Part shown: piece after piece, positions 168 to 31,151 of the stretch
Position numbering within the stretch: the first letter of the stretch is position 1
Layout: every line of letters starts with the position of its first letter
Assembly: GCA_036170245.1 (NCBI GenBank)
Contig: JAVHOV010000029.1
Location: 1 to 31,850, forward strand
Direction of reading: 5' to 3'
DNA: 31,850 nucleotides
Origin: an archaeon
Lineage (GTDB): Archaea > Iainarchaeota > Iainarchaeia > Iainarchaeales > JAAZKV01
Made by a program: the position numbers and the translations under genes
Notes under the pieces: generated by a model
Databases searched by the model: none
What the model saw: the letters and a program-made list of their open reading frames with translations, nothing else
Told to the model about the DNA's origin: nothing

Positions 168-255
168 TTGATTGAATTAATTTCAAATTCAAAGTACCCC
201 ACAAGATTTTTAAGGAACAAAATCCATTTATAATTAAATAAATTAAATGATTTTT

Positions 256-795: not shown

Positions 796-825
796 AATAA
801 AGCACTAATTTTTATAAAAAAATAA

Positions 826-2307
826 TTATACTTTTGGCTGTCCGCTTAAGCTTGGGCGTAAATTTATTCTATAAGTTCTCTTTCCTTTTATCATAACTGC
901 AGTATCTTTACCAGAAACTATATTCATTTTTGAAGGAAGTATTTCATTTAATTCAGTAGGCAGTTCCCTTTCAGTTCCTAAAACTAGTCCCAAACCCCTG
1001 TTTGATGCTCGAAGAATTGCAGTTACAACTCTTTCTTTATTGCTTTCAATTAATGAGTCAATTTTAGGAATCACTACTGTGCAGTCAGAAGTATTATTTT
1101 CAGAGAATGCTTTTGTTATTTGCCTTAAGATAGTGTGAATGAAAATAATTTTTTCTTCATTAGAAAGAAATTTAGTATTAATTACTACTGCTCTGCCAAG
1201 TCTGCCTGGAATTGCCCTTACTAATTCCTCTGAAGGAACATTTTGTCCAAAAAGAGATTTCATTTCAGTATTCATTATCTGCATTATTCGCTCTGCTTTT
1301 AATTTTTCATAATCTGATAATTCTTTTGATTCACTTATTTTCTGCAATAATTCATCAATGGAATTCACTTGGGCAGTAAATGCAAAAAGGGAAAGATTCT
1401 TTTCAAATTCATTGTCTTTAACTCCAAAAAGTTCCAAAGCAAAAATCAAATCAACATCTTTTATTGAAATTGCTATGTTTTTCTTAGGAGTAAATTCTTT
1501 AACTGGAAAAGCCATTGGTTCAAATTCAACCAATTCTTCTTTTAGTTCACCTCGATTAGGAGAAGCTACGCTTAGTTGACTAAAATAATCATTATCATCA
1601 AATATAACTATAGGAACATTATCCAAAAGAAGATTTTCAGTTAAAATATATGAACAATAGTTCAAACTTAAAGATTGTCCTAAAATTTGAGTTCTCATTA
1701 TTACTGAAGTAGGTTCTTTCATTATTTCCATTGCTTTACTTAGTCCTAATTGAATAAGAGGAATTTTTTCTTCTTCAACAGGCATCTTTCCGCCAAGATC
1801 AATTTTAGATAAAGTATTTCCCTTCCCTCCGGAAGAAAGCATCTTTAGGATAAATGGATCCCCCAAAATTGCAGCATAGTCACTCTTTGCAACAGTGGAT
1901 AATTCTTTTAAGTCAACGCTCGATGCCCTTGCTAAGTCAACCATCATGCTTGAATTTTCTTCAACACGTTTTATTTCATTGTCAACTCTTCTTGAAAAGT
2001 CTTCATGCTTGAAATCAACGTAAAAGGGATCAAAAGAAAGAAAGAATATTTTTCCAGTTTTTTCGCCCAGATTTTTTTCTATTCCCAAGCATTGCTTTGG
2101 AAGAGTCTGGATAAATGATTCTATTTGCCCTTTTGCGTAAAATGCTTTATACCCTTCAATTACAGCCCCGTTCTTTTTTCCGCCAGTAGTATCATACACC
2201 ATTACTATATAAAAATTTTCAGGATTTGCTACTATTTCAACTTCATGTCCATAAGTAGTTCCCGAGAATATTACATCCCAAGGGCCGTAATCAAGCTTGA
2301 AATCCAT
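826..2307 (-). CDS. HerA/FtsK/VirB4-like P-loop fold protein with degenerate Walker motifs (probable pseudo-ATPase)
   Basis: ORF 826..2316; ATG at 2307 preferred over TTG. Motif order matches HerA-like ATPases: IQLG, then RTQILGQSLSLNY (Walker A position), ENLLLDNVPIVIFDDNDYFSQL, PVKEFTP, AVVINTKFL, TVVIPKIDSL (Walker B position) and RASNRGLGLVLGTE (cf. GRKxGhghhhATQ). Confidence 0.65.
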   Translation of the reverse strand: MDFKLDYGPWDVIFSGTTYGHEVEIVANPENFYIVMVYDTTGGKKNGAVIEGYKAFYAKGQIESFIQTLPKQCLGIEKNLGEKTGKIFFLSFDPFYVDFKHEDFSRRVDNEIKRVEENSSMMVDLARASSVDLKELSTVAKSDYAAILGDPFILKMLSSGGKGNTLSKIDLGGKMPVEEEKIPLIQLGLSKAMEIMKEPTSVIMRTQILGQSLSLNYCSYILTENLLLDNVPIVIFDDNDYFSQLSVASPNRGELKEELVEFEPMAFPVKEFTPKKNIAISIKDVDLIFALELFGVKDNEFEKNLSLFAFTAQVNSIDELLQKISESKELSDYEKLKAERIMQIMNTEMKSLFGQNVPSEELVRAIPGRLGRAVVINTKFLSNEEKIIFIHTILRQITKAFSENNTSDCTVVIPKIDSLIESNKERVVTAILRASNRGLGLVLGTERELPTELNEILPSKMNIVSGKDTAVMIKGKRTYRINLRPSLSGQPKV

Positions 2308-2457
2308 TTTTAACAATCCACTCGCTTTTCAAATTAAAAAACATTGATACTTTAGCACTAATAAAAGTGTTTTTGCCTATTTATTACTTTCCAAAAACTC
2401 CAAAAGTTATGTTTTTAAATTACAAAAACTTATTCTTGTTGTAAATTGTGATGAAAA

Positions 2458-2952: not shown

Positions 2953-2985
2953 TAATTAAATTTTCTAATTTTAATTAGCAATAAA

Positions 2986-3330
2986 TTATTTCATTCCAAG
3001 TAACTCTTTTAATTCAGTAAAAAAGTTTTTTGCAAGTTGAGGAGTTTTGTGTAGTGCTCCTTTGTAATTGTATTCCGTATTTTCTGGAGGAGCCAAAAAA
3101 TCAGCTGTTTGTTTTGAAGCCCCTTTGACATAAGTTTCAAGTTTTGCTTCAGGACTGCTTCCTTCAGCTTTTTTTGCTTGATCCCATGCTTTTCTTGATT
3201 TGGCTTCAACATAGTTATACACAAGCACAATGAAGGACACAACAAAAATAATGAAAGCTAAAGCAGATAATCCGACAAATAAAAAAAGAATTGTAATAAT
3301 TAATCCTATAAAGAAAGTGCGATAATCCAT
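2986..3330 (-). CDS. Small membrane protein (N-terminal TM hairpin, C-terminal amphipathic helix)
   Basis: 114 aa with GGGTGAT SD upstream. About 35 hydrophobic N-terminal residues, then a soluble tail ending AKNFFTELKELLGMK. Confidence 0.8.
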   Translation of the reverse strand: MDYRTFFIGLIITILFLFVGLSALAFIIFVVSFIVLVYNYVEAKSRKAWDQAKKAEGSSPEAKLETYVKGASKQTADFLAPPENTEYNYKGALHKTPQLAKNFFTELKELLGMK

Positions 3331-3343
3331 TTAATCACCCACT

Positions 3344-3670
3344 TTACCCCATCATTCCCATTCCGCCTTCTCCGCCCATTCCGCCTAAAAGACCAGCATA
3401 AGGATCAGCAGGTGCTGCATCCTCTTTTCCAAGTCCCATTATATAAGCCAAAATTAATAAGCCGAATATTGCAAATATCCAATAATCTTTCATCCCTACT
3501 CCGTTTATGAAATAAAGTACCCCTACAGAAATTAATGTAAGTATGCTGGCTTTTATATCCTTAGAAGACAAAACAAGTATTAGTGTTGCCCCAAAAACAA
3601 TCCAGACTTCCCCAATCTGTATTGCAAACCCTATAAGGGTTATTGAAACTAAAAATGAAAGCAAATCCAT
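3344..3670 (-). CDS. Small multi-pass membrane protein with Gly/Met-rich C-terminal tail
   Basis: 108 aa with GGTGA SD. About 4 short hydrophobic segments; tail is DPYAGLLGGMGGEGGMGMMG. Confidence 0.8.
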   Translation of the reverse strand: MDLLSFLVSITLIGFAIQIGEVWIVFGATLILVLSSKDIKASILTLISVGVLYFINGVGMKDYWIFAIFGLLILAYIMGLGKEDAAPADPYAGLLGGMGGEGGMGMMG

Positions 3671-3714
3671 AAGTTATTCACCAAAAACAAACATACCTTG
3701 TATAATACCAAAAT

Positions 3715-3990
3715 TTACTTTGGCTTTGGCACTCTTTCCAATAAATCTTTACCAAAGATTGACCAAATATATAATATGAAAGGGACCCAAATAAGATCTG
3801 GAAATTGGTAAAATAAAAGAAATGTAATTAAAATTGCTAAAAGCAAACCTACTGTCGCCCCGATTTGTTTCTTCGCCCAGGCATACATCCACAGGAAGTA
3901 TATTATTAATAGAACCAAAGAAATTGTAAGACCTAAATCATTTCCACTTAGGGCTCCAAAAAAGTCAAATTCTAAAATCACACTAATCAC
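3715..3990 (-). CDS. Small membrane protein (~3 TM)
   Basis: 91 aa hydrophobic ORF with a GTG start (3990, or 3981). Contains LLIIYFLWMYAWAKKQIG and ATVGLLLAILITFLLF. Confidence 0.7.
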   Translation of the reverse strand: MISVILEFDFFGALSGNDLGLTISLVLLIIYFLWMYAWAKKQIGATVGLLLAILITFLLFYQFPDLIWVPFILYIWSIFGKDLLERVPKPK

Positions 3991-4082
3991 TTTTTCCTAA
4001 TTAATATTGTTTTTCGTTCTACTTAAACTTAATTGTTAACATTTAACCGTTTTAAACAATTCAATGCAATTGCAATAATTAA

Positions 4083-4430
4083 TTACATCTTTGGTTTTGT
4101 CAAATCAAGGATAGTCTTTGATCCCCATGTAATTATACTAAATACCCCGAAAGTAAATAAAGAAATTATTAGCCATCCGCTTGCTCCAATCCACCACCAT
4201 TTGATTACTAAAAAATATATTAGCACTCCTGAAACAATTAAAGTAAGTGTCCCGTTTCCCAAAAAACCCCTGACTGATTGGAATATCATGAAAACCAAAA
4301 ATATTTTTACAATAATATCAATTGGTTCAAAGGCGTACATTAAAACTGGCAATAGTATTACAACCCCAATCATTAGGCCTAGTGCAATGAAAATGAAATT
4401 TCCTTTTTCATCCAGATTCAAATCAAACAT
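4083..4430 (-). CDS. Small multi-pass membrane protein, paralog of 4458..4862
   Basis: 115 aa. Its core VKIFLVFMIFQSVRGFLGNGTLTLIVSGVLIY aligns by eye with LKIFVLMTIVSYVTQHLGKGPLAIIIVAVIAW in the neighbouring gene. Confidence 0.8.
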   Translation of the reverse strand: MFDLNLDEKGNFIFIALGLMIGVVILLPVLMYAFEPIDIIVKIFLVFMIFQSVRGFLGNGTLTLIVSGVLIYFLVIKWWWIGASGWLIISLFTFGVFSIITWGSKTILDLTKPKM

Positions 4431-4457
4431 ACCAAAAACCTTTTTTTATAATCAACA

Positions 4458-4862
4458 TTACATCCCTGCTCTTTGTCTCATTTCCATCATTTTTCTTTGT
4501 CTGTCTTTCATATCCATTCCATGAGGCTGATTCTCTGTTTCTCCACCTTTAGCCATATTCTGTTCCATCATAACTTGAGGTGCAAGTATAAAGAAATCCA
4601 TTAATATTTGAGTTGCTCCAAACAGTACTAACATGTACAAGACGTAAATACTTCCAAATATTGCAAAATTCGAAAAAATCATCCATGCAATCACTGCAAC
4701 AATTATTATTGCCAAAGGGCCTTTTCCCAAGTGCTGAGTTACATATGATACTATTGTCATTAGAACAAATATTTTCAAAACAAAAGTCATGTCGCCAAAC
4801 ATTTCTTCAAAGAATAATACAAAAGGTAAAATTGTACCGACTGCAGCCAATAGAGGAATCAT
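4458..4862 (-). CDS. Small multi-pass membrane protein with Met-rich charged C-terminal tail
   Basis: 134 aa with about 4 hydrophobic segments. Tail is QVMMEQNMAKGG...GMDMKDRQRKMMEMRQRAGM. ATGAT SD-like motif upstream and TTTTATAC TATA-like box at 4893-4900. Confidence 0.8.
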   Translation of the reverse strand: MIPLLAAVGTILPFVLFFEEMFGDMTFVLKIFVLMTIVSYVTQHLGKGPLAIIIVAVIAWMIFSNFAIFGSIYVLYMLVLFGATQILMDFFILAPQVMMEQNMAKGGETENQPHGMDMKDRQRKMMEMRQRAGM

Positions 4863-4990: not shown

Positions 4991-7900
4991 TTAATTTACA
5001 GAACCAATTAGAGAAAGTTCTTTGTCACTCATGCTTGTTGTTGAACCACTTACAGTTTCTATTACTGCAGGGTTCCACCAAAAGCTTGTACTTGAACCAT
5101 CGCTTGATACACATACTTTTCCTTCTTTTACTGCATCAAACAAATTTTGTATTGAACTAATCTTTGAATTTCCTAATTGATCATTATAAGTCATTTCACT
5201 TATTCCGCCAAGCTGTATAGTTTTAGTGAATTCACTATTCGCACTCCAAAAGTTAGTGCTGTTATCTTCAGCGTTTAGTATGTAAGATGATGAATCAGCA
5301 GGAACAAAGAATAGTGTCTTAATTAGCATTGTTCCTTGTCTTGAAATATCATTAAACTCAAATCCGTATACATTGTCCCCTAATTTTGAAATTCTATAAT
5401 CTGGAGAATCTTGGTAAGAATCAATTGCATTTCCGCCGTAGAAGTTCTTTGATTTAGCTGCTCCAGTCCAGTAAGCTATGTTTCCTCCAGTAATAATTGC
5501 TTTCTTTTCAGTATTCAAACTATAAGCCATCTTTCCTTCGTTAGCTTCAATAGTTACTTTTCCAATTACTGGAGTTACAAATGTTGGAGCAAGTTTTAGT
5601 GTTGCAGTGTTATTTGACACACTTGCTGAAGCAATTTGTCCTCGTGTTCCAGGAGCAACATTTACTTCTTCGAAAGTTGACTTTGTTGTTGTTTCAACTG
5701 CAGTTACACCATTGCTCAAAGCTGAGTCAAATGTGTTTACAAAAAATCCGTCATTAGATATTTGTATTCCGCCAGCATCAGCATCAATGTTCTTGTAAGC
5801 CAAACCATACCCTTGTCTTCCATTGCTCTTATCCCCAAGCATTCCGTCAAATGGCATTCTGTAGAATGGCGAATCCACACTTGGTGATTTTACAAGGAGC
5901 AATTGGATTTCTATTCGAGTATTATTTTCGTCAATTACTCTAAATGCATCAGGAGATTTAATATTTACATAAACTTCGTATAGTCCTGGTTCAATTGCAT
6001 TGTCCCCAGTGAATCTCTTTGTTATCTTGAAGTTTTTGCTAGTCAAGTAGTCAACTATCTTACTTTGAGTAGCATTGATATTTACTTTTTGTAGGAATTG
6101 TTGTCTGTAGAATTCTTTGAAGTCACTAAAGAAGTCTTCTGTAAATGCATCTCTTGTCAAGTACACTGCAAAGTCAATATTATTGTACAATTCAGTACTA
6201 TCGCTAATTGCACCAGTATAACTTACACTTTGCTTTCCGTCAATATAGTAAATTAAATTTGGAACTCCCCCGGTTCTTTGTGTAGATTGTTCCACCCAGC
6301 AAGCTCCGTTTGAATCTTTATTTACAAATGCTCTTGAAATTGGGATTCTATCTCCTTTTTCTCCGTTAACAACCGCAGTGAAATAATAAATCCCATCATA
6401 CTTTTCCACATCAACCGGGCCTAAAGTTAGTGTTGTTTCTCCAATTGGTGCAGTGAATTCCTGCATTCCAGTTGATGGTTCACCTTCTCCTTTCCAAGAG
6501 TAGCTAATGTAAGTTAATTGGGAAACGCCAGAGAGATTCTTAATCTTTAATGCAGCAGTCGCTTGATTAGTATTAGGATTCAAAGCAATTTGAACATCAC
6601 TTATTCCAATAAATCCTTCTGTAATAGTATTGCTTTGTGAATTTACTTGATCAATTGAAGCTTGTATTTCATCTTGAACTGGACTAGGAGGGCAACCAAA
6701 TTGTCCACCATTTTGTGCTAGGAATTCATCAAGGTTTGCAAGCTTCTTAGTTAATGCAATCATGAATTGTGATCCGTCACAGTAAATGTAATTCGGATTT
6801 GTATAATCACATGCATCTGCTCCAATTGCATCCCAATCCCAACTTAGTTTTATTCTTGGTAAAGCATCTTCTCCAGTTGAACCAGTTAATGAACCCATGT
6901 AACATGAAGAGTATTTTCTAACATATGCATCCTCTCCCTTAGGGTCAGAACTTATAATTCTAATGTGGTACTTTTGACTGTAACTGCTTTCGCTTACTCC
7001 GCTGCATAGTCCTTCATCCGTTCCTGAGCCAATCCAGTAATTTCCAAAAGTATTCTTTTTACATAGTACATCATAACTTGCTGATGAACCGCTGCTTGTT
7101 CCGTTTGATACCGCCATTGGATCATAACCGTGTGTGTGCTTCTTTGAATTAACTACTAAAGTTCCATATTTAGGAAGTGGGTCATCAAGCCCGCTGTTAG
7201 TGAATCTGATTGCAACTGTTTCTGAACCAGAATAATAAGCATCAGTAAAATCCCACTCTGGTGTAATAGTGTCTAAAGAGAAAATCAAATCCCCAGCATC
7301 GCTTGGAATTTCTTGGTCTACATTAGTTCCGCTAGGAGAAGTAACATTAGTTGTTCCACCTTCAAGGTTAATTACAAAGTCAGTATAGCTTACAGTCTGA
7401 TCATTCTTTGGATCGTCACAAGGAACATCCTGAGTCATATATGCTAATAGTCCGCCGATTACTGCACCAGCTAAAGCAAACCATCCTTGTTCGTGCCCTG
7501 CCCAAATTGCAAAGTGTGCAGCTTCTGCTTTAGGGTCAGTTTCTTTTATAGGAGCTTGCTGCCACACCCCAGCTTTTGGAGCTGACCAAGTATTATCAGT
7601 AAATGGATTAACATAGTTAGCTACTTGTCCAACCCAAATAGAACTTACCCAAGCACCAGTAGTACTTTGGTAGGACGCCATTTGGTTTGTTACAGAATTC
7701 ATGCTGCTCCCAGTAAAACTTTGACCTGTAGCATTATCATAAAGAGTATATTGTGTTGCAGAAGAAGCTACATTACCAGTAACTGAATTACTAATATCTG
7801 TTTTCATAACAGTATAATCTCTTCCATCAACAGAGAAATCACCTGAATAAGTTCTAGTTGTAACTCCATTTTCAATATTGTATACTCCTCCACCTTCAGT

Positions 7901-10900
7901 ATTAGCCAAAGCTGCTGAGGCTGAATTATTTAAAGTAGCTGATTCTGCTGCTTGTTGAACCGTCAAATCAGAATCCCCCACTACTCCAGATCCACTAGAC
8001 CCCTTAGAGCCACCACTTGAATCAGTCCCACTCTTCTTATCTTTTGTAGAGTTCTTTGGATCTGTCTTAAATCCAGTTCCAATCATTGAACCTACCATTG
8101 CACCTATCATTGTTCCTGTAAGTACTTTCATCCAGTCAGTGCTTGAGTTCTTTGTTCCCCAAACACATCCGTCTGCTTTTACTTTTACAGATTGTGTTAG
8201 CATATCATTAGTCAATATTACTGCATCTTCTGCACCGTTTCCTTGTAATAGTAATTCGTATTTGTTTAATTTGAATATTTTATTTTCTGGTTCAATAAAA
8301 GTTACTGGCATTTCTCCAATATAATTAAATCCTGTGCTTCCTCGTGTTCTTGCGTGAACCGTTACACCATAAGTTCCAGGAATACTTGGACCATACACTT
8401 CTATTTCTTCTGATTTGTTGTTAAGTGTGAAACTCTTTTTACTTAGAGTTATTTTTCCTTCTGCTCCGCCTGAGCACCCTGAATCATTTCTGCAAAGTAT
8501 TACATCAATCGTCTGTCCCAAGCACTTTGAAGTATCAATCTTTAATTTTGCTCGTTCATTAAATGCAGTTGAACCACCATCAGCAGTTATGCTCATGCAT
8601 TCTTTTAGGTTCACTACATTAGTTGTAAAGGTTACTGTTGAAGGATTACTCTTCACTGTCTGATTTTGGAATTTTGCTTCAAAACTTACTGGTAGTTGAA
8701 CTGATTTTCCAACTGAGTCTTCGTTTGGAGCATATGTGATTACCCCATACATTTTTGCTCCTGCAGGAACTGATTTTATAATTTCTCTTTTACTTCCATC
8801 AAGTGCAGTTCTTCCTGTACTTGTTCCGGTAGTAGAAGAAACACTTATTTGGGCTATTCCACTTAAGTCATTTACTGAAGTAACTGTCAAACTGTCAAGT
8901 GCAATATTTACATTTTCAGAGGCACATGCGTTAAGTAATTCAAAGTCAAATCTAACTTGTGCTTTTTCAGTTGTAAGAGAAGTTTTTCCAGTTGGTTTTA
9001 TTACCAAGCATTCAGTGTCAGGGTTAGCAGTTGTTGATACATTAATTGTAATTGGAATATCTAAATAGTAAAGCAATCTCAATTTAGGTTCTTCAAAAAT
9101 AACTTTTACAGCTCCCTTTATTGAAATTGGTTCTATCATTGTGTCTCCAGTTATCCCATTTGCAAGTTTTATTCTTAGTAAATCAATGTCAAGCGTGTCT
9201 TCTGCAGGAATTGTTTTTTCTTCACTGTTTAATTCATTAAAATATCCATTCATTGCATCTTCATTGATTACATCCTTGTATTTCGCATCAATTGTGACAC
9301 TTTTTATAACCAAATCTTCTTTTGTAAGATTTGCAAAAGTTACTTGTTGTATTATCTCTCTTTTAGTAAAAGTGTTTAATGTAACTGACAATTCTTCAGG
9401 AGTAACTGCAACAGTATTTTCTGAAACAGTTGTAGAAAATCTTTTTCTTGAATACCCTTCTTTGATTACTTCAATTATTACAGTTGACTTATTGAATAGC
9501 GCACCAGACTGAACTATTGCTCTTCCCATTCTGTCAGTTTTTGTTGAAGTTAGCAAGTATTCTTCAAATCCTGGTTCTTTCGCATAACTGTTTACTATTG
9601 CATCAGGCAAATAGTTTTGTTTCTCATCAAACACAGTTACTTCCATGTCAGTGTTAATCATTGCAGGAATAAACTGAGGAGAGATTGTTACTGCAAAATC
9701 TTTTTCCTTTACTATCTCAATATCCACTTCTTTTGTATAAATTATATTTCCGTCAGACTTGAGTTCAAACTTTATTATATCTGCCCCATATTTCAATCCT
9801 TCAATTTCAAGATTAATATCTATAACTGAATCTTTTTCAAATGTAGAAATTTCTAAGTTATCAACTTTTTGGATGGGAACATTGTTTGTTAAAGCTGAAA
9901 GTGAATCCCTTATTTTATAATTATTAATTCTAATTCGCTTTTCATCAGCAGAATCTCCTACAACACTCATGCTCAAATATATTTTCTTTTCAGTTCTTCC
10001 AAAATCTATTCCTGAATTGTTTACTAAAGCTACATGGTAGTTGTATTGACTTACCTGCTTCATTGAGTAAGGTGCTGAAACATATAGTTCTTCTTTTTGA
10101 GAGTAAAGCCATTCATTTGTTGCGCAAAATTCTCCTTCACATGTACTTTCAGCCCCAACAAAGTAAGTGTTTGTTTCATAAGTACTAGAGTAAAGTGTTT
10201 CATTGATGTCACTTGCAGGCTTTCTTGTTTTATCAAACTCTGCTCTATAATAGAATACTATTTCTTTGTTTGGTGTTGCAGTTCTTTTTATTGAGAACCA
10301 TACTTTTACTTCTCTTGTTGCTTTTCCTGCATCAATCCACCGTGCATTAATCCATTTTGCGAGTCCGTCAGTTAAATTATTTGAATCAAAAGCATATCCT
10401 TTAGTTGGATCATAAGTTGTTCCTCTTGTTTCTGTCTGCACTTCTGCTGCACTAACACTATCAATTGCAATTATGTCATTTTCAAGCATTGATTCTTTTC
10501 CTGCTCTAAAATGCATTAACATTGAATCATATTCAGCATCGCTTTCAATAAATAATTTAGCATAATATTTCTTTCCTGCAGCCATTGTGTTAACCGCAAC
10601 ATCATTTTCATTGTAGATTTTGTCAAATTTTATGCTTGGTTCAGATATTTGTTTCTTTAGAGTAATATCAAAAGTATAAGTTTTGTTCGGCCAAAGCATT
10701 ACTGTTGAAGTGTAATAATCTTCATAAGTTTCTGATTTTGCAAGCACATAAACTGTTTGTCCTGCTTTTATTTCTTTTGTTGTACTTCCCCCTTCAACAC
10801 TAATTAATCCAGCAAGTCCATGGCTATCACTCATTTTTCCATCAGTAGTAAGTATTTCTGCTGTCCCATCAATTTTTTCGCCAAGTTCATCAAATAAATT

Positions 10901-12451
10901 TACTTTGATGATTGAGGAACCTACTTCAATTTCTATAGTAAAGTCAGTTTCAGCGTCAATAGAAACTGTTTTAGCTGTTGAAGAACCATAGAACGGAGCT
11001 TTGATTGCATAAGCATAAACTGAACCGGTTACTTTTCCTGCTAAAAAAGTTGCTTTTCCGTTTACATCAGTAAGAACATAATTTTTTTCCTGCATTAAAT
11101 CTACTATCCCGTCAGTGTCTTTGTGTTTGAGCATTATTTTTGCATTTACTACAGGGATTCCATCCTGGTCTTTTACTAGTACATTTACTCTGCCTAAATT
11201 GCTTGCAGTTATTTTTTCAAGTTCTAAAGTAAGATTTGCATCGCCGCTTACAGTCATTGTTGCAGTTGATGAGAAATATCCCCCATTAATGTCACCCAGC
11301 TTTTTAGCAGTAAATGAATAATCTCCAACATCAGTAAATGAAAATACAGCCACTCCATCAGAATCAGTAGTAGTTGAATCAATTTCTCTGCCTTGAGAAT
11401 TTGTTACATTAACTATTGCACCAGCTATTTTTCTGTTTGTGCTTTCATCAAGAACATTAAGAGTTATTTTTGCTTTGATTGCTTTTGTTACGGCAAGTAC
11501 AAGTTCAGTGTCTTTTGTTACATCAACATTTTTTGACACAATTCCATAATTTCCACTTGAATCAGTTACTGTTACAAGGTATGACACAGGTGTAACAGAA
11601 ATAGTTGTTTCGCTTGCTCCTGAAGTTGTTGAATCATAAGAATTTTCTCCGCTTACTTTAACTCTAAAATTTGTGGAATTAACTGTAAATCCATCTTCTC
11701 TTACTTTTACAGTTAATTTAACTGCACTTACTTCTGGTTTTTCCAAAAACAAATCATAAATCAAAGAATTAACATAATATGATTTTGCAATAAATTTTGA
11801 ATCATTTACACTAGCTTTCAATATACATCCAACTGGCTCCGTAACTTGTATTTCTTCTCCACTTGTTGTTGCACTCAAGGGAGTAGGAGAAACTTTATCA
11901 GATCCTTCACATGAGAAATTTACTGTAACAGCATTAGTAAGTGCAGTGCCGGTTGCAGTTCTTACAAATATTTTTTTTGTAACAGGAGATAATTTTACTG
12001 GAGGTGCGTTTAATTTTATTCTTTCTTCAACCACATCATTTACTAAAAAGCTTCCTAAAAAAGTTCCTTTACTTAAATTAATATCAAAAACAATTTCGCT
12101 TCCCGCTTTTATTTGAGAAAAAGTTACTTCTCCAGCGGTGTCAGTTCTTCCAGATAATTCTTTTACAAAAGAATTATTTTCCATTAATTTTGCAGTAATT
12201 AAAGTATCATAAACCGGTTTTCCATCATTTGACACCAGAGTAAATTTTGCATCAAACACTTGGTTTGAACTTAGTAAGAAGAATGCTCCAAAAGCAACTA
12301 ATAGAAGAAGAACAATTAAAAATAAAATAAAACTTGGAATTACTGTGTCAATTGGATCAACTATTTTATAGATTGGAATGTGAGCATCTATTTTGTCAAG
12401 CACAGCATACCATTTCTCTTCAAGAGAATAATAAAAATCTTTTACACCCAT
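4991..12451 (-). CDS. Giant N-terminally anchored surface protein A (2486 aa) with carboxypeptidase-regulatory-like/Ig-like beta-sandwich domains and an internal glycine-zipper pair
   Basis: Uninterrupted ORF. N-terminal amphipathic helix plus one TM (PSFILFLIVLLLLVAFGAFFLL). Repeated 'V.D..G.PV..A.V...TD..G.A.F' prealbumin-like units, many NxS/T sequons and paired Cys; no C-terminal anchor. Confidence 0.9.
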   Translation of the reverse strand: MGVKDFYYSLEEKWYAVLDKIDAHIPIYKIVDPIDTVIPSFILFLIVLLLLVAFGAFFLLSSNQVFDAKFTLVSNDGKPVYDTLITAKLMENNSFVKELSGRTDTAGEVTFSQIKAGSEIVFDINLSKGTFLGSFLVNDVVEERIKLNAPPVKLSPVTKKIFVRTATGTALTNAVTVNFSCEGSDKVSPTPLSATTSGEEIQVTEPVGCILKASVNDSKFIAKSYYVNSLIYDLFLEKPEVSAVKLTVKVREDGFTVNSTNFRVKVSGENSYDSTTSGASETTISVTPVSYLVTVTDSSGNYGIVSKNVDVTKDTELVLAVTKAIKAKITLNVLDESTNRKIAGAIVNVTNSQGREIDSTTTDSDGVAVFSFTDVGDYSFTAKKLGDINGGYFSSTATMTVSGDANLTLELEKITASNLGRVNVLVKDQDGIPVVNAKIMLKHKDTDGIVDLMQEKNYVLTDVNGKATFLAGKVTGSVYAYAIKAPFYGSSTAKTVSIDAETDFTIEIEVGSSIIKVNLFDELGEKIDGTAEILTTDGKMSDSHGLAGLISVEGGSTTKEIKAGQTVYVLAKSETYEDYYTSTVMLWPNKTYTFDITLKKQISEPSIKFDKIYNENDVAVNTMAAGKKYYAKLFIESDAEYDSMLMHFRAGKESMLENDIIAIDSVSAAEVQTETRGTTYDPTKGYAFDSNNLTDGLAKWINARWIDAGKATREVKVWFSIKRTATPNKEIVFYYRAEFDKTRKPASDINETLYSSTYETNTYFVGAESTCEGEFCATNEWLYSQKEELYVSAPYSMKQVSQYNYHVALVNNSGIDFGRTEKKIYLSMSVVGDSADEKRIRINNYKIRDSLSALTNNVPIQKVDNLEISTFEKDSVIDINLEIEGLKYGADIIKFELKSDGNIIYTKEVDIEIVKEKDFAVTISPQFIPAMINTDMEVTVFDEKQNYLPDAIVNSYAKEPGFEEYLLTSTKTDRMGRAIVQSGALFNKSTVIIEVIKEGYSRKRFSTTVSENTVAVTPEELSVTLNTFTKREIIQQVTFANLTKEDLVIKSVTIDAKYKDVINEDAMNGYFNELNSEEKTIPAEDTLDIDLLRIKLANGITGDTMIEPISIKGAVKVIFEEPKLRLLYYLDIPITINVSTTANPDTECLVIKPTGKTSLTTEKAQVRFDFELLNACASENVNIALDSLTVTSVNDLSGIAQISVSSTTGTSTGRTALDGSKREIIKSVPAGAKMYGVITYAPNEDSVGKSVQLPVSFEAKFQNQTVKSNPSTVTFTTNVVNLKECMSITADGGSTAFNERAKLKIDTSKCLGQTIDVILCRNDSGCSGGAEGKITLSKKSFTLNNKSEEIEVYGPSIPGTYGVTVHARTRGSTGFNYIGEMPVTFIEPENKIFKLNKYELLLQGNGAEDAVILTNDMLTQSVKVKADGCVWGTKNSSTDWMKVLTGTMIGAMVGSMIGTGFKTDPKNSTKDKKSGTDSSGGSKGSSGSGVVGDSDLTVQQAAESATLNNSASAALANTEGGGVYNIENGVTTRTYSGDFSVDGRDYTVMKTDISNSVTGNVASSATQYTLYDNATGQSFTGSSMNSVTNQMASYQSTTGAWVSSIWVGQVANYVNPFTDNTWSAPKAGVWQQAPIKETDPKAEAAHFAIWAGHEQGWFALAGAVIGGLLAYMTQDVPCDDPKNDQTVSYTDFVINLEGGTTNVTSPSGTNVDQEIPSDAGDLIFSLDTITPEWDFTDAYYSGSETVAIRFTNSGLDDPLPKYGTLVVNSKKHTHGYDPMAVSNGTSSGSSASYDVLCKKNTFGNYWIGSGTDEGLCSGVSESSYSQKYHIRIISSDPKGEDAYVRKYSSCYMGSLTGSTGEDALPRIKLSWDWDAIGADACDYTNPNYIYCDGSQFMIALTKKLANLDEFLAQNGGQFGCPPSPVQDEIQASIDQVNSQSNTITEGFIGISDVQIALNPNTNQATAALKIKNLSGVSQLTYISYSWKGEGEPSTGMQEFTAPIGETTLTLGPVDVEKYDGIYYFTAVVNGEKGDRIPISRAFVNKDSNGACWVEQSTQRTGGVPNLIYYIDGKQSVSYTGAISDSTELYNNIDFAVYLTRDAFTEDFFSDFKEFYRQQFLQKVNINATQSKIVDYLTSKNFKITKRFTGDNAIEPGLYEVYVNIKSPDAFRVIDENNTRIEIQLLLVKSPSVDSPFYRMPFDGMLGDKSNGRQGYGLAYKNIDADAGGIQISNDGFFVNTFDSALSNGVTAVETTTKSTFEEVNVAPGTRGQIASASVSNNTATLKLAPTFVTPVIGKVTIEANEGKMAYSLNTEKKAIITGGNIAYWTGAAKSKNFYGGNAIDSYQDSPDYRISKLGDNVYGFEFNDISRQGTMLIKTLFFVPADSSSYILNAEDNSTNFWSANSEFTKTIQLGGISEMTYNDQLGNSKISSIQNLFDAVKEGKVCVSSDGSSTSFWWNPAVIETVSGSTTSMSDKELSLIGSVN

Positions 12452-12550: not shown

Positions 12551-15500
12551 TTATCTGCTAGGAATGCAAGTATTTTCTTTTGCATCAATTGTTGCTTTCA
12601 ATTCTTGGCTTAATCCTGTATTATTCCAATAATAATCTCCGCCAACTACACATACTTTCTCTTGTTTTACTAAATCTAAAACATCAGATAGAGTTTCTAT
12701 CTTGTCAGTTACATTAGTTGAATTAACTGAGAGTACTGTTCCGTTACCCATTGTACTTTCAAAGTTAGCTGATTCGTTTGCTCCAGTTAACTTGAATACA
12801 ATTGAAGCATCCTGTGGAGCAAAGAATGTTCCATAGAATGATGCTGTTCCTGCTCTTTGAGCCATAGTCCATGCTGGGAGTCCGTATCCAGTAAATCCTG
12901 TTACAGATCCGCTTGCAAATGTATCATAAGTGTTAGAGTAAGAACTCATTGATCTTCCTTCAAAGTCGACACAGCCCTGCCCGATTCCTGTCCAAGAAAT
13001 GAAGCTTCCACCTGTATTTTCAGGTTGTCCATTTACTTCTGCTGAGTAGAATGCGTAAGCATCAGTGCTTGTGTTTCGTGTAACATTCATTATAATTGGT
13101 ATTGCAATACTTGGAGTTAGAACGAATTGTACAACATCGTCTCCAGAAATGCTTAATACATTTCCTCTTGTTGGAACAGTGTTAAGTAAATCAAATGCAG
13201 CAACACCTTTGATTGTTGATACTTGTACAGTTGTTGCAGCGTTGTTTGAAGCATTTGGTCTTGCGTATACTTTTGTTCCGCCATTATTTGTAACTAAGAA
13301 TAAATCTTCAGTCAATTGTTCATATCCTGCACCGTATCCTTGTCTTCCATTGTCAGAATCAAGTCCTACAACTCCATTGAACGCAACATTGTATATTGCA
13401 AAATTAGGTTCAGGCGGACCTTGTGGTGACAAGTTTACAACAATACTTTCAATATTGTTATTGTCCCATCTCCAGTTCTCGTTCTTGAATGTAATTGTAA
13501 TAGTTGCATCGTACTTTCCAGCATCCCATGCAGCAGGACTATTTGGCCACTTAACAGTAAATTTATCGCTTAGTAGTAAGTCTCTGAATCCTCCAGTGTT
13601 GTATTCAACAGGAGCAGAAGTAACTCTATTTAGGAATTCATCAAAGTCTGCTTTGAAATCATTACTGAATCCATCTCTTAGTAAGTTAGCTTTGAATGAA
13701 ATGTACTTGAGAACTTTGTCCCCGCCAGCAGTACTCAATTGGTTGTTTGCTGCTAGAACTTTTTCGAAGTAATCTTTTGAAGTTGCGTACTTCAAGCACT
13801 GTGAAGCCCCAGTAGAGCCGATTATTACAGTTGTTCTAATAGTATCATTTCCAGTACTTCTGTTTCCGCATCCACTGCATAAAGCAGGAGTCATTATTAA
13901 GTCAACATTAAATGAGCCTTCACCAGTAATTGATTTATTCAAAGTACAACTAAATTCAGTACTGCTCTTAAAAGTATTAGTCTGGTCTGGGCAAACTCCA
14001 GAGATTTCATTTCCATCACTCTTCTTTACAGCGTATTTCATTGTTGCACTCATTTCAAGATTGTTGTTTGTCTGAACTGCAGCAGTGATTGTTGCGCCAT
14101 CGCTTAGAGATTTAACAGTAACACTAGTAATTCCAACATCCAAATCATTTGAAGCCAAGTCTTGTGTCTTTGTTCCTGCAATTTCTGCACTTGTTGGACA
14201 AGCATTTAGTGAAGTTGAATTAAAGAATTCCTTCATGTCCATCATTCTCTTTAATAGCATTATTGAGAATTGTGTAGAATCACAGTAATTGTAATTGTCA
14301 GGGTTAGAGTCAGAGTCACATTCATTGATTCCAATATCATTCCAGTTCCAAGCAAGTTTCATTTTTGGAACTCCTTCTGCTCCAGTATATCCATTCTTTC
14401 CGTCAATGTCACAATTAGAAATTGCTTTTGCTGTGCATGGGTAAGTTGTTGGACCGCAGTCAACGTATTCGTAAGAATCAAATAATAAGTGGAATGATTT
14501 AGAGTAAGCTCTAATGTCTGTTGTAGTTAAATCATCAGCAGTCATTGTAGCAGTCTTTTCTCTTACTAGTCCCGGCCCACCAATGTAATTTAGAATAGTT
14601 CCAAATATTCCGCTTCTCTTTATCTTCAAATTATCTCCTCTGTTCTGTGCACTTGTTTTAACAGAGTCATAATTATAATCAGTATCATAAATTGCTTCTT
14701 GTCCGTCAACCTTCAATACTCCAACAAATGGCTGGTTTGGACTTTGGTTGACTTTCTTTCCTGTATTAGTAAATTCAAGTTCCATTTCTTCTTCAAGTCC
14801 GATAGTTGCATTCAATGCCTGTGGATTGTACAAAACAGTTCCTGCATAAGATGAATCAAGTGAAGCAATTGAACTTACTGAACTAGTGCTACTGCTTGTA
14901 GTTGAAGAAACTCCAGAGCAGCTAGAATAATTATAAATTTTTTGATTCGCATCAAATGTGTTAACAGTAATTCCATCAGAATTCTTAAAATCAAATCCAG
15001 TTATAATAACTTTTGGAACATTGAAAGTATCAGAGAAATCAATTGTAGTATCTTTGGCCTGCATTAATGAAACAAGAGCTGCAATAGCTGCTCCGCCAAG
15101 GGCACTTCCGCCAAACATTCCAACAACTGCGCTAGTTGCAGTGCTGAATAAACCCTGACCCATTACATCTTGTATACTTGTATTAGTGCTAGTTCCATTT
15201 GTTGTAGCAGTTGTAGATGTAGCTGCAGTGCTTGTAGTTAAAAGGAAGTTACCAGTTACACTTGAAGGACATGAATTATCAGCAGGTATCTTTAGAACAG
15301 TTCCTGCAGCAATCGCAGTTCCAGTTAAACCATTTAATTCTCTAATATCAGCAGGAGAAACTCCGCACTTTATTGCAACAGTGTAAAGGTCTTCACCAGC
15401 TTTAACAGTGTAAGTTGTAGCACTACTCTGAGCAGCAGTGTTTGAAGCAGAAACTAAACTAGCATTGTTATAACTTTCAAGCATAGCTTGTCCCTCTGCA

Positions 15501-18500
15501 GAATTGCTTGTGAATCCAAGTACTCTTCCGCTAGAATTCTTAACAGAAAATAAAGTCAAATCATTGCAGATTAATTTAGCTACTCCTTTATCCTTAGTCA
15601 TAACACAGTAGCCTTTTGCTTTAACAAGTTCATCTTTGCTTTCGAATAATGCTTTTATGCTTTCGCCTGCACTAGAACTGCAGTCAACAGCTCCATTAGG
15701 CTTCACTAGTGCAAGATTTGCTCCATCACCAATTATGTTGAAAGTGCAGTAATAGTTAGTGAATTCATCATTTGCAAATTCTGCGACAGTAACATACATT
15801 CTTTTTCTATTAACATCATTTGTACCGTTATATTTCTTTCCGTCTGAAGCATAATAACCAACAAATGAACTACTCATCGGATCAACTATTGCAGTATTAG
15901 CTGAAGGAGGGGTGATTTGGTCAGTAAGAACTTCAAGTTCAGATGCAGCAGCAGCTTCTTCTTGGTTCTGTTTCTCTTCATCATATGCTTTTAAATCAGA
16001 AGCTTCTTTTTGAGCCTCTTTAGTAACTTCATCAGTACAACAATAGTACTTTGAATTCAATCCTTCAACTTTAATATTGAATAATCCAAATTCATTGCAA
16101 GGAGCTTCCATTAAATTCTGTGCGAAAGGCTTTGTCAAGCACATTGAAGTTGGACTCTCTTTTGAGAAACAGCAGTATCCTTTTGAAGGATCTGATTCTT
16201 CTGAGAAGAAACTGCTGTAAACTCCAGGACATTCAGTAGCACTGTACTTTATTACATCCTCGCCTTTTTTAGTTGCAGAATATTCTTCATTACATATTTC
16301 AGTATATCTGTCATTTTCATTTACAGTAATTCCTTTCTCTTTTAGGCAAGTAGTGCATGTGTTTGCAGCTTTTCCTAAATCTCCTTTTAACTTCTTAATA
16401 TCAGCATCAACTTTTGAAACTACTTTGTCAGTCCCTGCATTGAATTCTTTCATTAAATCAGTTCTGCTTAATGCATCATCCATACTTTCATTAGCTATTT
16501 TATCAGCACTTATCTGGAATTCAAACAGCGATTGCTCAGCACCTGCTTGGCCTGCATTAATTTTAGTTAGTATCTCAGCTGCCTTAGTATCAACTTGGGC
16601 AGACTTTTCCTGCTGAGTTTTTTGTATGTCTTTTACAACAGTATCTAGTTTCTTTTGAAGAGGAGCAATTTCACCGCTTGCGGCTTCTTTTTGCTTTGCT
16701 GCTTCAGCCTTTAATGCATCTAATCTATCAATATAATCTCTGTCACACTGAGTTGGTTCTCCTCTTGAAGCCTGGTCTATTTCAGCTTTTGCTTTAACAT
16801 CATCAACAGTCTTAATGAAAGAATCATATTCATTCATTTTCTTATCAAGTTTGCCAGAAGCTTGATCTTTTATGCCTTCAACTTTCTTTGCTGAAGCCAA
16901 TGCCTGATCTGCTAGTTTCTTTTGAATTTCAGATTTAGTATTGCTTGCTTTTTCACCGTTATTCTTTGAATCATCACTCCATAAATTACTAATCCAGTCA
17001 GGGAATATTTTTCCACTTCTTACTCCGCCTGAGATTCCACCTATTAATGCAGCAGTTAAAATGCTCTGCCAGTTATCAAATGGAACTATTCCTGTTACGT
17101 GTGCAGAAACTGATTTCTCAACACAATCATTCTTTAGGTATCCTCTGTCTACTCCATCAAAGTTATTGAACTGTGAATCATAAACATCATATTCGTATCT
17201 TGTCAAACTAAAGCAGCTGTTCACTGGTTCTACTATTACTTTTACATTGTCAAGTAATTCTAAAGAGCTTCCTGGTTGTCTTGCATAAACTAAAATGTTA
17301 TAAGCTCCAGGCATTTGTCCCACTTGGGCATTTATTGTAACTTCTTTTGTTTCGCCTGCTTTGAGTGCGAATGTTTTGTCGCTTACTGCTGCTTGCATAT
17401 CTCCTAAGTCTAATTGTATATCGCTAGCAAATTTGCATGAACTTATTATTGAGAATGTTCCGCTTTCTCCTTCCTTAATATCTACAAGTCCAGTTCCAAG
17501 TGACATACAGTCTTGTAAGTTTTCGTAATCAATAGTAAATTTAACTTCTGTAGTTATTTTTTGTGGAGCTGAATCAGTATTGTTTTGTGCTTCCATTACA
17601 ATTGATCCTGTTGCTGTTCCGCTTGAGCCTGCTAGTGGAACAAATCTTAGTGTGATTGGAATCTTTTCCCCTGCAGCCACAGTTGGCTTTAGCACTCTTG
17701 AGTATGCTGAACCTATTTCCACTTGTGCAGTTTTGTAAATTGCAGTAAAGTCTCCTGCAATACTTCCTGTTGAGTTAAGAGTTAATCCTAAGTTCTTTAA
17801 CTGTACTGGCTTTGAATCAACTGTACAATTGTTCTTTAATTCTACTCCAAGTTCTATCATGTTTCCTCTTGTTTGTGCAGCCCAAGTCCCTGGAGTTATT
17901 TGTAAGCATGACTGATTATCAACATCTTTTCCTAAACCTACTCTGATTTTTGCATTTACTTCCTGTACCCAGCTCTTTCCTTCTGAAGTTAGAGTTACTT
18001 GGAATACTCCATCAAGGTCAGTTGCACTAGGAACATAATCAGAAGATATTACTTTGAAATCAAATTCTTCAAAGTCTTGTGCAGCAATAGTCTTTCCAAT
18101 GTACTGGTCAAACCATGATTCCATCTTTGATTCGCTTAGTGCGCCTTTTAATTTTCCAGTAAGTTTAATTGACTTAATTTTTAAATCAAGGCCAGTGCTG
18201 TTTGTAAGTTTTACAGTTTGTATTTCTTCTTTCTTAGATTGTGGGTTTACAGTGTAATTTAGTTCAGTTGGTTCTATTGTTACTACATCTTCAGCAACAC
18301 CAAATTCAGTTATGAATGTTTCAAATTCTGATTTTTCAACTTTAAGAGTTAATTTTTCTCCAGGGAATGATGCAGGTATATCAATTGAAGCAACACCCAA
18401 AGCATTAGTAGTTGTAGAAAATATTTTTGTTCCGAATCTGTCAAATACTTTTACTAAAGCGTCACTTACTTCCAAGTTACTTACAGCATTTCTTGCTTTG

Positions 18501-21385: not shown

Positions 21386-21445
21386 ACCCAATATCACTTG
21401 TTAACGTGCATTAAAGATTAATCTCTACAAAAATTACGTTGACTG

Positions 21446-21471: not shown

Positions 21472-21975
21472 TCAGCGTTTGAATTGATTTAATTCATTTA
21501 GCAAACTCATTACAGTTTGGCTTTCTTGAACAGTGAAACCAGTATCTGCAGGCCAAAATTGCACAAGGTAAGGTAAAATTAATTCAATTATTATTGCAAT
21601 TACTAATGAAATAATTAAAATAGTAGTAACTATTTTCATTGTTTTTAAATAATTTTTTTTGCCCCAAAAATCACTTTCTAAAGCAAAGCCTAGTTTTGTT
21701 CCAGCATAAGTGGATATGATTATTGGAAAAATATAAAGAAATATTGCCGCATTTTTTTGTGCACCTAGCTGAAGACCAATTAGTAATGCTGGAATAAATG
21801 CAGCATATCCAAAAAATATTGCTCCAAATAAAAAATTTAGTATTGTTAATATACTTAGAGGAATTTGACTTTCAACTCCAAATAATAATGTTGTTGGATA
21901 AAAATAGGAATAGGCAAAAGCTGCGAGTAAACCAAATAAAGTGAAAATTGCCATGCTTAGAGATTTTTCATCCAT
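21472..21975 (-). CDS. Integral membrane protein, SpoIIM/DUF95-like
   Basis: 167 aa with about 5 TM. Segments GAIFFGYAAFIPALLIGLQLG, STYAGTKLG and ISLVIAIIIE resemble SpoIIM-family C-terminal motifs (aaGlrlG; ll.AA.IE). The usual PHG..E motif is not evident. Confidence 0.55.
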   Translation of the reverse strand: MDEKSLSMAIFTLFGLLAAFAYSYFYPTTLLFGVESQIPLSILTILNFLFGAIFFGYAAFIPALLIGLQLGAQKNAAIFLYIFPIIISTYAGTKLGFALESDFWGKKNYLKTMKIVTTILIISLVIAIIIELILPYLVQFWPADTGFTVQESQTVMSLLNELNQFKR

Positions 21976-29631: not shown

Positions 29632-31077
29632 TTAACTTATACTTGGAGTGCATTTTCCTAGACCCGTATAACAGTAGTGGTTGACTGTACCATATTCTGC
29701 CATTATTACGCTAGGAAAACTTATATCACTTATTCTAATTTTATACACATTGCTTTTTTGGCCTGCTGTTACTGATGTTCCTTTTACCAAAAAATTTGGA
29801 TTAGTGTCAACAAACGCAATATCTGCACTTGTATTGATTATTCTTCCGCAAAATAACTTCTCTCCAGCACCACCTTTGATTTCCGAATAAACTTCAGGAG
29901 CTGCCCCAATTGTAACAAGATAATATCCGCATCCAGAAATCGCTTCTTTTATTTGAGCACCTTTTCTGCTCGGATCCAAAAAAGTATTTAACACAAAAAA
30001 TGTAGGATCCCCTGTTTCAAATGCCCCATCATTAATTGAATTTTGGCACACTTGCTCCGCACCATACCCCCAAAGACCTTTTACTCCAACTGAATCCCCT
30101 CCTGAGAAGTAATTTGTTATTCCCGCATGAGAACTAGTAAGATTAACAACCCATTTTGCTTCTTCTGAAGTCGGACAATCCTTATCCCATGCACCTGATG
30201 TAGGAGTAGTTGCATCAGTTCTTGGAACACAACTCATGTTATCACAAAAACCCAATCTATATTCTGAATTTTGCTGATGCGAATCCTTTAGCCCTTTTGC
30301 TGCATCCATGGATTCTTTTAAAACTTTAAAAAATCTCAAAGGAATATAAACTTTCAAATTTGTTTTTGGGAGTATTGCCATTTTGATTTGTTCTTGAGTA
30401 AAAGTGTCTTTTACAATTATCCTTGGAATTAATTCATACTGTTCATCAGTTAATTTGTTTAGTGGAATATTAAAATAAAATGATCCTTTAGGACAGGAAC
30501 TTTCTGTGCAGTCAACTACTTCTAAAAATCCGCTTCCCTGCGCATTAAGGACAGTTGCAAGAGCAGTGTAAAGCGCTTTTTTAGCTTGCGGACTTTTATC
30601 AGTTAATTCAACTCTGTATTTACCATAAGTCCATTCAGCAAAATTAGTAACTGTGTTTTCTGAAACATAATCTAAAACACTTGAAAAGTTTTGACCTGAA
30701 GAATTAGTATTAAGTAAAATGTTTTCCTCAAATTTTTTCTGTAGTTGGTCAAAAGTAATTGTATCAGAATCAGTTCTGATTTCAAACAACCCCATTCCGG
30801 GTTCGTCACGCATTTCTGTATCAGTGTAAGTCAAATAATCCTCCATTTTTTCTCTGAAAGAATAATTGAAACTCTGTAATGCATCCGCTCTTGCAATGTT
30901 TGCTGCATCTGCCAATTGGTAATTATTGAGCATCCCGTAAATCTGTGTGCTTGTTTTTTCTTCACTCATTACAAGTGTTCCAACTAACACAGAAACCGTC
31001 ATTATGAGCACTACTGCAACAATTGCAGAGAACATGTTAAACCCCTTTTCTGAAGAAGGCAAAAGAACTATTTTCAT
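29632..31077 (-). CDS. Large prepilin-like (class III signal-like) exported protein with Cys-rich C-terminal half; possible minor pilin or adhesin
   Basis: ORF 29632..31083; ATG at 31077 preferred. N-terminus SEKG|FNMFSAIVAVVLIMTVSVLVGTLV has a KG|F site and a hydrophobic helix, then a long alpha-helix; the remainder has about 10 Cys. No Glu at +5. Confidence 0.65.
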   Translation of the reverse strand: MKIVLLPSSEKGFNMFSAIVAVVLIMTVSVLVGTLVMSEEKTSTQIYGMLNNYQLADAANIARADALQSFNYSFREKMEDYLTYTDTEMRDEPGMGLFEIRTDSDTITFDQLQKKFEENILLNTNSSGQNFSSVLDYVSENTVTNFAEWTYGKYRVELTDKSPQAKKALYTALATVLNAQGSGFLEVVDCTESSCPKGSFYFNIPLNKLTDEQYELIPRIIVKDTFTQEQIKMAILPKTNLKVYIPLRFFKVLKESMDAAKGLKDSHQQNSEYRLGFCDNMSCVPRTDATTPTSGAWDKDCPTSEEAKWVVNLTSSHAGITNYFSGGDSVGVKGLWGYGAEQVCQNSINDGAFETGDPTFFVLNTFLDPSRKGAQIKEAISGCGYYLVTIGAAPEVYSEIKGGAGEKLFCGRIINTSADIAFVDTNPNFLVKGTSVTAGQKSNVYKIRISDISFPSVIMAEYGTVNHYCYTGLGKCTPSIS

Positions 31078-31151
31078 AGTCAAAACTAAGTTATTTGTAA
31101 TTAATAAATCTGCTCTTTGTTTTTAAAAAAAATAAAATGATTAAATTATTT

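Follow-up and report, generated by a model that had tools for sequence, protein, structure and literature searches.

The 31,850-nucleotide stretch analyzed here (the window: positions 1 to 31,850 of contig JAVHOV010000029.1, archaeal assembly GCA_036170245.1, order Iainarchaeales of the DPANN phylum Iainarchaeota) encodes a giant protein, protein A, in the middle of which two glycine-rich helices flank a 194-residue insert. This hairpin site is a real, conserved, and undescribed feature of an order-defining protein family. Our favored interpretation, to which we assign a probability of about 0.45, is that the helix pair is exported and forms a zipper neck, clamped by cysteines, on which a rapidly changing domain is presented at the cell's exterior. 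The observations behind it are the position of the helices, their conservation, the co-variation of two bracketing cysteines, the turnover of the insert, and a drop in hydrophobicity in the insert-bearing forms.

The helix pair of protein A and its homologs

Both helices lie where a preliminary description of this DNA had placed them (nucleotides 8137-8069 and 7486-7436), on either side of the insert. That description had called them a glycine-zipper pair, which is confirmed: helix 1 (DWMKVLTGTMIGAMVGSMIGTGF) has the zipper G1446-x3-G1450-x3-G1454-x3-G1458, and helix 2 (GWFALAGAVIGGLLAYM) has a shorter one, G1662-x3-G1666-x3-A1670. The four-glycine zipper occurs nine times in the 367 open reading frames (ORFs) of at least 250 amino acids (aa) of the same genome, and, with the list judged by inspection, the copy in protein A is the only one within an uncharged aliphatic helix. 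After the N-terminal anchor, the two helices are the most hydrophobic 19-residue segments of the protein, with Goldman-Engelman-Steitz (GES) scores of 2.05 and 1.57 (next best, 0.93). Compared with the protein's own anchor they are weak, with Kyte-Doolittle (KD) values of 1.40 and 1.26 (1.26 to 1.37 for helix 2) against 3.22, and a crude free energy came to about +2. Protein A has no C-terminal transmembrane (TM) segment; its anchor is N-terminal, and the anchors of 95 proteins of the family have a median KD of 3.08. A match to PF13620 (E = 7.5e-10) identified its carboxypeptidase-regulatory-like Ig domains.

In an AlphaFold2 model of aa 1280 to 1920, built from 25 sequences (predicted local distance difference test [pLDDT] score of 69, predicted template modeling [pTM] score of 0.52), an Ig-like domain precedes a beta-sandwich between whose strands both segments form helices. 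The flanks reach a pLDDT of about 90, whereas confidence is low for the insert, which is modeled as a helix and a five-strand sheet joined to disordered linkers. The C-terminal 801 aa gave a confident model (pLDDT of 91, pTM of 0.73) from an alignment of 99 of 107 candidates, near-duplicates, truncations, and weak tails having been left out by choice. The preliminary description had regarded the helices as membrane-inserting elements, and part of that view is supported: they are conserved, sit in a predicted beta-sandwich loop of the extracellular part, are far weaker than the anchor, and appear to descend from a hydrophobic hairpin that looks membrane spanning in most short homologs. The hairpin-bearing domain also contains a His-rich motif (window positions 7124-7138, aa ~1772), which takes the form H-x-H-G-D-x-x-H in short homologs, is near-invariant in 26 sequences, and may be a metal site or a pH sensor.

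A profile of the conserved core that follows the hairpin detected the giant family in 155 of the 171 phylum genomes that are at least 80% complete; these comprise 155/159 genomes of the own order, versus 0/12 of other orders, with typically about four matches per genome. Protein A itself scored E = 4.6e-62 against this profile, which includes protein A, and it has the conserved post-hairpin core, the N-terminal anchor, and the tandem cluster of the family. The family is near-universal and multicopy in an uncultivated order and takes up several percent of a genome of <1 Mb. The profile matched 488 clusters at 50% identity, and the best 150 of these were retrieved. Named relatives bear the labels “Ca. 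Iainarchaeum,” Diapherotrites, or unclassified archaea, and a few are labeled Falkowbacteria, Thaumarchaeota, Chloroflexi, or Micrarchaeota, presumably loosely. The idea that the giants replace an S-layer was rejected, because the S-layer family PF05124 is present in 76 of 90 phylum genomes, including as a fragment in the own genome.

We compared the site across 136 A-type sequences with both flanks, of which 36 without a detectable anchor motif were dropped and 100 were scored. A cysteine just before helix 1 and another just after helix 2 were both present in 90 homologs, both missing in 7, and single in 3, and the two were lost together in more clades than one; such co-variation suggests that the pair (Cys1429 and Cys1678 in protein A) forms a disulfide clamp. 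What lies between the two cysteines ranges from a short loop or direct hairpin to inserts of about 480 aa. The helices are separated by fewer than 60 aa in 52 homologs, by at least 150 aa in 40, and by an intermediate distance in 8, and the two GxxxG-type helices accordingly form a direct hairpin in the short homologs and a split one in protein A. The short forms usually consist of a single uncharged Gly/Ala-rich hairpin of 35 to 70 aa with acidic outer flanks and KD values of up to 3.4; among 32 short hairpins the turn is of the CxxC or CxxxC kind in 10, and four short forms carry only a short aromatic loop at the site. The helices recur across the order, and among the forms with at least 150 aa between them, helix 2 contains GxxxG in 40/40 and helix 1 in 36/40.

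Hydrophobicity is lower in the insert-bearing forms. Helix 2 reaches a KD of at least 2.2 in 35 of the 52 forms with <60 aa, versus none of the 40 forms with at least 150 aa (maximum, 2.02). Both segments fall below a KD of 1.3 in 16 of the 100 homologs, and several homologs keep the scaffold though hydrophobicity is lost. These 16 include the four short forms with only an aromatic loop and three long-insert homologs (P0041, P0055, and P0081) in which polar acidic segments replace both helices and both cysteines are absent; the insert of these three proteins, lacking hydrophobic helices, cannot cross a membrane. In a midpoint-rooted FastTree phylogeny of the flanks, long inserts fell into two separate clades, the first with S/T/G-rich inserts (including that of protein A) and the second with Ala-rich helical, Cys-type inserts.

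The site resembles the Pfam families PF05433 (Glycine zipper 2TM), PF13488, and PF13441, which likewise consist of a GxxxG-rich two-helix hairpin of moderate hydrophobicity. Unlike in these families, the hairpin of the giants lies midchain in an archaeal protein of 2,500 aa, is bracketed by cysteines, and is split by 0 to ~480 aa. All matches listed with scores stayed below the curated cutoffs: protein A scored 14.2 bits against PF13441 (cutoff, 28.9) and 12.9 bits against PF13488 (cutoff, 25), the best-scored homologs reached 20 to 22 bits (cutoffs, 24.2 to 28.9), and weak matches to the three families were found in 4 to 8 of 25 members.

The insert and the side of the membrane

The insert of protein A is rich in S, T, A, and G (27, 22, 21, and 20 of 194 residues, respectively, with 5 W) and hypervariable. 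Against 15 relatives its median identity was 24.5%, equal to that of shuffled sequence (24.0%), whereas the flanks were 62% and 51% identical. Its secreted-versus-cytoplasmic composition ratio of 0.113 exceeded the 99th percentile (0.086) of 453 windows without TM segments, as did the ratio of 12 of 16 S/T-type inserts. Among the long inserts that bear cysteines, 22 of 24 have an even cysteine count, and the Ala-rich helical inserts carry a near-symmetric cysteine pair, which suggests a stapled antiparallel rod. The equivalent insert of the neighboring paralog B (~620 aa) has many cysteines and a LysM domain (nt 15412-15284), and three B-type inserts (L082, L087, and L099) of 740 to 840 aa contain 68 to 77 cysteines in repeated modules without a Pfam match. 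None of the 48 other inserts or parts of inserts that were scanned has LysM, so we discarded the notion that it characterizes the family and hints at a bacterial host. In the S/T-type inserts (n = 13) we saw no positive-inside bias after helix 1 (K+R, 2.1; D+E, 2.2).

The secreted-like composition, the disulfide-type cysteine patterns, the LysM domain, the extreme turnover, and the polar homologs that retain a long insert together place the insert outside, and by these sequence features that of protein A looks extracellular. Because the two flanks are predicted to be parts of a single domain and their cysteines co-vary, they would lie on the same side, outside the cell, and consequently either both helices cross a membrane or neither does. 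A topology with the whole body in the cytoplasm and the insert alone outside was rejected in view of the conserved cysteine pairs, the secreted-type Ig-like domains, and the secreted-like flanks; the net charge around the N-terminal anchor does not decide the orientation of the whole body.

If the pair is an exported neck, the helices would likely pack against each other, and perhaps against neighboring subunits or the outer lipid leaflet, within the disulfide clamp. The simplest view of the short forms with strong hydrophobicity is that they are hairpins embedded in the membrane of the cell itself, and the ancestral form without an insert may have been a two-helix hairpin put in by the own translocon as a second anchor. 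For a large extracellular insert to be gained, the helices would then have had to become too weak to reach the stop-transfer threshold. Export of the loop would demand such a decrease in hydrophobicity, and both insert-bearing clades show one. The displayed domain may serve in recognition of hosts, surfaces, or viruses. If correct, this would be an example from nature in which a membrane hairpin became less hydrophobic while gaining an exported domain. The site is the only candidate second membrane contact of the giant family as well as its main variable slot, and the domain is small and expressible (~250 aa in short homologs, plus the insert in protein A), which makes own membrane, host membrane, and display stalk directly testable alternatives.

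Competing placements of the helices

Several findings weigh against the exported neck. The helices of the long forms have kept bilayer-sized uncharged runs of at least 18 aa (39/40 for helix 2 and 25/40 for helix 1), along with aromatic ends and acidic outer flanks. In protein A, the stretch after helix 1 is rich in Lys, and a slight positive-inside pattern is seen in the Cys-type clade (K+R, 1.4; D+E, 0.3). The hydrophobicity switch rests on two clades, and the closest relatives without an insert (L020 and L021) are already weak, so ancestry may explain part of it. Only 1 of the 24 Cys-type inserts exceeded the 99th percentile of the windows without TM segments in composition, a score that may merely reward low-complexity linkers. 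N-glycosylation sequons were not enriched in the inserts (71 seen, 71 expected), with little enrichment in control secreted proteins as well, and a BLAST comparison of the P0041 insert with a Cys-clade insert gave no similarity. The bilayer length, aromatic ends, lysines, two-clade basis, failed Cys-type composition, and sequon counts leave room for three other placements.

In the first of these, which we consider doubtful, the two helices are an ordinary pair in the cell's own membrane that serves as a second anchor, with the giant arching over the surface and the insert in the cytoplasm. The bilayer length and the lysines just described speak for such a pair, as do the uncharged Gly/Ala hairpins of the short homologs with their strong second helix and acidic outer flanks. 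GxxxG motifs stabilize marginal TM helices, which also counts in its favor. Set against it, both helices of protein A are marginal and lie 194 aa apart, and the S/T-type inserts lack the positive-inside bias and character of cytoplasmic loops; the insert composition, the even cysteine counts, the Cys-rich and LysM cargo of the paralogs, and the polar replacements with the insert kept likewise argue for an exported loop.

It is unlikely that the hairpin is exported at the tip of a long Ig-like arm and enters the membrane of a host, whether to serve as a harpoon anchor or to form part of an oligomeric pore, translocon, or fusion device. The helices would be weak enough for export while keeping bilayer length, the short forms include the aromatic loops and CxxC/CxxxC turns described above, and an arm of ~1,350 aa made up of Ig-like domains could span two S-layers; in a different DPANN pair, an intercellular tube of 68 nm is reported (PMC11329633). 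This placement would also suit a multicopy, conserved operon that includes small membrane proteins along with a pilin-like gene, and “Ca. Forterrea” is predicted to be host dependent (PMC5905446). Yet the very hydrophobic short forms would be expected to stop in the own translocon, the hairpin varies more in length and sequence than a defined pore lining suggests, hydrophobicity is lost in several homologs, and there is no known host. Nor is there an evident motor for dragging folded Cys-rich inserts of hundreds of residues through a host's membrane, the linked HerA-like protein having a degenerate Walker A region.

Within this placement, a pore or fusion function proper, as the preliminary description had proposed toward a host, is highly improbable. 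We regard it as possible but unsupported: the searches described below gave no fold or sequence match, short forms would be expected to be retained in the own translocon, and several homologs are no longer hydrophobic at the site. Glycine-zipper pore formers and fusogens include VacA, secreted alpha-pore toxins with Gly/Ala hydrophobic hairpins, and HAP2/fusexins. Protein A shares with them Gly/Ala-rich hydrophobic segments in an exported protein and a loop that cysteines clamp at a beta-domain's tip, similar to class II fusion loops. It differs in having no PDB sequence match (a search with two alignments gave 0 matches at an E of 10), in resembling HAP2 only through a generic Ig-like domain (background Z of 8.4 to 9.1), and in its anchor, which is N-terminal, without the C-terminal TM segment of a class II fusogen. 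Foldseek/VIA searches against the PDB matched only Ig-like domains (residues 1-109 and 257-362 of the first and second models, respectively), other parts being barely probed with models of >400 aa. An intimin D0-D1 two-Ig match extended over model residues 2 to 557 (Z of 8.3; root mean square deviation of 4.6; 166 residues aligned). Against viral structures, Foldseek gave a best template modeling score to the query of ≤0.14 for both models, without a meaningful match, and an ESM Atlas search returned no usable match, which speaks to neither absence nor novelty. By fold or sequence, no pore former or fusogen was found beyond generic Ig-like domains, although multidomain models can hide matches.

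An extended form of the host-membrane proposal, likewise unlikely, takes the whole operon as a host-contact machine of the Iainarchaeales. At least four giant Ig-like arms would reach through the S-layers, and their clamped hairpins would jointly enter another cell's membrane, so that the symbiont is anchored and cargo specific to the lineage (Cys-stapled helical rods, repeats rich in Cys, or LysM) is presented or delivered. If true, the phylum would gain its first named molecular candidate for an organelle of attachment or feeding, with a modular cargo slot.

A second, outer membrane, in which the giant spans a periplasm and the weak zipper pair crosses the outer membrane in the manner of VirB10, with its two-helix antenna, and exposes the insert at the surface, would reconcile bilayer-sized weak helices with an extracellular insert and draws on the subthreshold matches to outer-membrane glycine-zipper families. 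We give it very little credence in light of the widespread S-layer family PF05124, of the strongly hydrophobic short forms, which would stay in the inner membrane, and of a cultivated Micrarchaeon once thought to be two-membraned that has an S-layer (10.1101/2021.04.28.441871).

The surrounding locus and related systems

Protein A is the last of three tandem giant paralogs, together with B and C, each of which has one strong N-terminal TM segment and carboxypeptidase-regulatory-like Ig domains (Table 1). In place of a clear hydrophobic pair, paralog C has a Gly/Asn/Tyr/Ser low-complexity stretch (aa ~1270-1345) and a short Pro/Ser/Ala repeat (aa ~1668-1690). The 167-aa multi-TM protein between B and C, which matched no Pfam or NCBIfam library entry, may resemble SpoIIM-like proteins.

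Table 1. Features of protein A and neighboring genes in the window
Feature	Position (nt)	Strand	Remarks
Giant protein A	4991..12451	-	2,486 aa; N-terminal anchor, ~1,350 aa (chiefly Ig-like domains), hairpin site, C-terminal region of 800 aa
N-terminal TM anchor of A	12275..12331	-	aa 41-59; KD 3.22
First strands of predicted split beta-sandwich carrying the hairpin	8174..8275	-	aa ~1393-1426; structure model
Cys1429	8165..8167	-	N-side Cys of putative disulfide clamp; homolog co-variation
Glycine-zipper helix 1	8069..8137	-	aa 1439-1461; predicted helix aa 1440-1459, pLDDT ~63-72
Hypervariable S/T/G/A-rich insert of A	7487..8068	-	194 aa; predicted linker, helix, five-strand sheet (pLDDT 52-70), disordered tail
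Glycine-zipper helix 2	7436..7486	-	aa 1656-1672; predicted helix aa 1653-1673
Cys1678	7418..7420	-	C-side Cys of putative disulfide clamp; homolog co-variation
C-terminal region of A	4994..7399	-	rest of split sandwich, Cys-rich conserved core, one Ig-like domain, part without fold match
HerA-like protein	826..2316	-	degenerate Walker A region; PF01935, E = 6.7e-5
Five small membrane proteins directly downstream of A	2986..4862	-	1-4 TM segments; order kept within the family, partly beyond
Paralog B	12551..21397	-	2,948 aa; weaker Gly-rich helices at equivalent site, nt ~17071-17012 and ~15139-15059
Multi-TM protein conserved between B and C	21472..21975	-	167 aa; Pfam, NCBIfam: no match
Paralog C	22069..29526	-	2,485 aa; N-terminal scaffold as in A; clear hydrophobic pair absent (best internal GES 1.29)
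Protein with pilin-like N terminus	29632..31083	-	483 aa; homolog with weak, below-cutoff ComGF pilin match, E = 5e-4

Gene order in three other genomes matches that of the window, running from a fourth giant through the pilin-like gene, C, the small multi-TM gene, B, A, and the small membrane proteins to two short proteins, the HerA-like protein, and a DNA polymerase-sized gene. The HerA-like gene was present in 59/59 class genomes searched and, with coordinates compared by eye, lies ~5 to 10 kb or less from a giant in many families. The small locus genes persist in an order without a match to the giant-core profile, and another genome without such a match keeps only C- and D-like giants. The pilin-like, small membrane, two short, and HerA-like genes (window positions 247-4862 and 29632-31083) form a class-wide locus beside the polymerase-sized gene, which occurs also where giants were not found.

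The closest published counterpart is “Ca. Forterrea multitransposorum” (Diapherotrites), in which Probst and Banfield reported five membrane-anchored proteins of >1,800 aa in one 42-kb region, ~5% of the genome, with a likely role in cell-cell interaction (PMC5905446). By description, that cluster is like ours in phylum and in kind; the account takes one sentence of the main text and includes no domains, hairpin, or family analysis. A literature search, with subscription journals and supplements outside its coverage, found no paper describing the hairpin or the giant family. A term search of the accessible text of PMC11420986 found no candidate proteins, and in the accessible text of 10.1101/2024.05.28.596244 Iainarchaeota appear only in a figure legend.

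The SPEARE giants of Nanohaloarchaeota and the large membrane proteins of “Ca. Sukunaarchaeum” (10.1101/2025.05.02.651781, PMC6642349) resemble the giants, by description, in coming from reduced archaeal genomes, in being partly tandem, and in their proposed role in host contact. The SPEAREs are longer than 5,000 aa and the Sukunaarchaeum proteins, by prediction, are helical with multiple TM segments, whereas the family of protein A is beta-rich with one strong anchor. The Nanobdella attachment organelle (PMC11104419) and the ARM-1 nanotube dock (PMC11329633) are large, repetitive structures on the surface through which a DPANN cell is connected with its host. These structures belong to other phyla, and the giant-core profile has no match even in other orders of the own class; any likeness would be functional. 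Few of the proteins from which DPANN attachment structures are made have been identified (PMC11104419).

A motif of approximately [TAS]-G-[LFW]-F lies ~6 to 25 aa before the C-terminal anchor in five surface proteins of the own genome (L113, L114, and L115; C26, C2, and C41). It occurred in 10 of 53 candidate ORFs, some of them spurious (3.3 in shuffled sequences), and upstream of the helix 2 region in 26 of 57 B-type giants (11.6 in shuffled sequences), with a copy in the window at 15239-15256. A comparison with NCBIfam sorting signals gave no match. It is possibly a lineage-specific processing or membrane-surface motif, and cleavage before helix 2 at a TG-x-F-like motif is a lead only. The own genome also encodes further giants (L116, L117, and L118; C36, C20, and C37) of 2,203, 1,737, 1,777, 1,551, and >1,597 aa, and the 1,737-aa protein has several Gly/Ala-rich hydrophobic helices at aa 605 to 860. 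At the contig end (window positions 31152-31850) lies an open frame that, by gene order in relatives, is likely the 3' end of the fourth giant.

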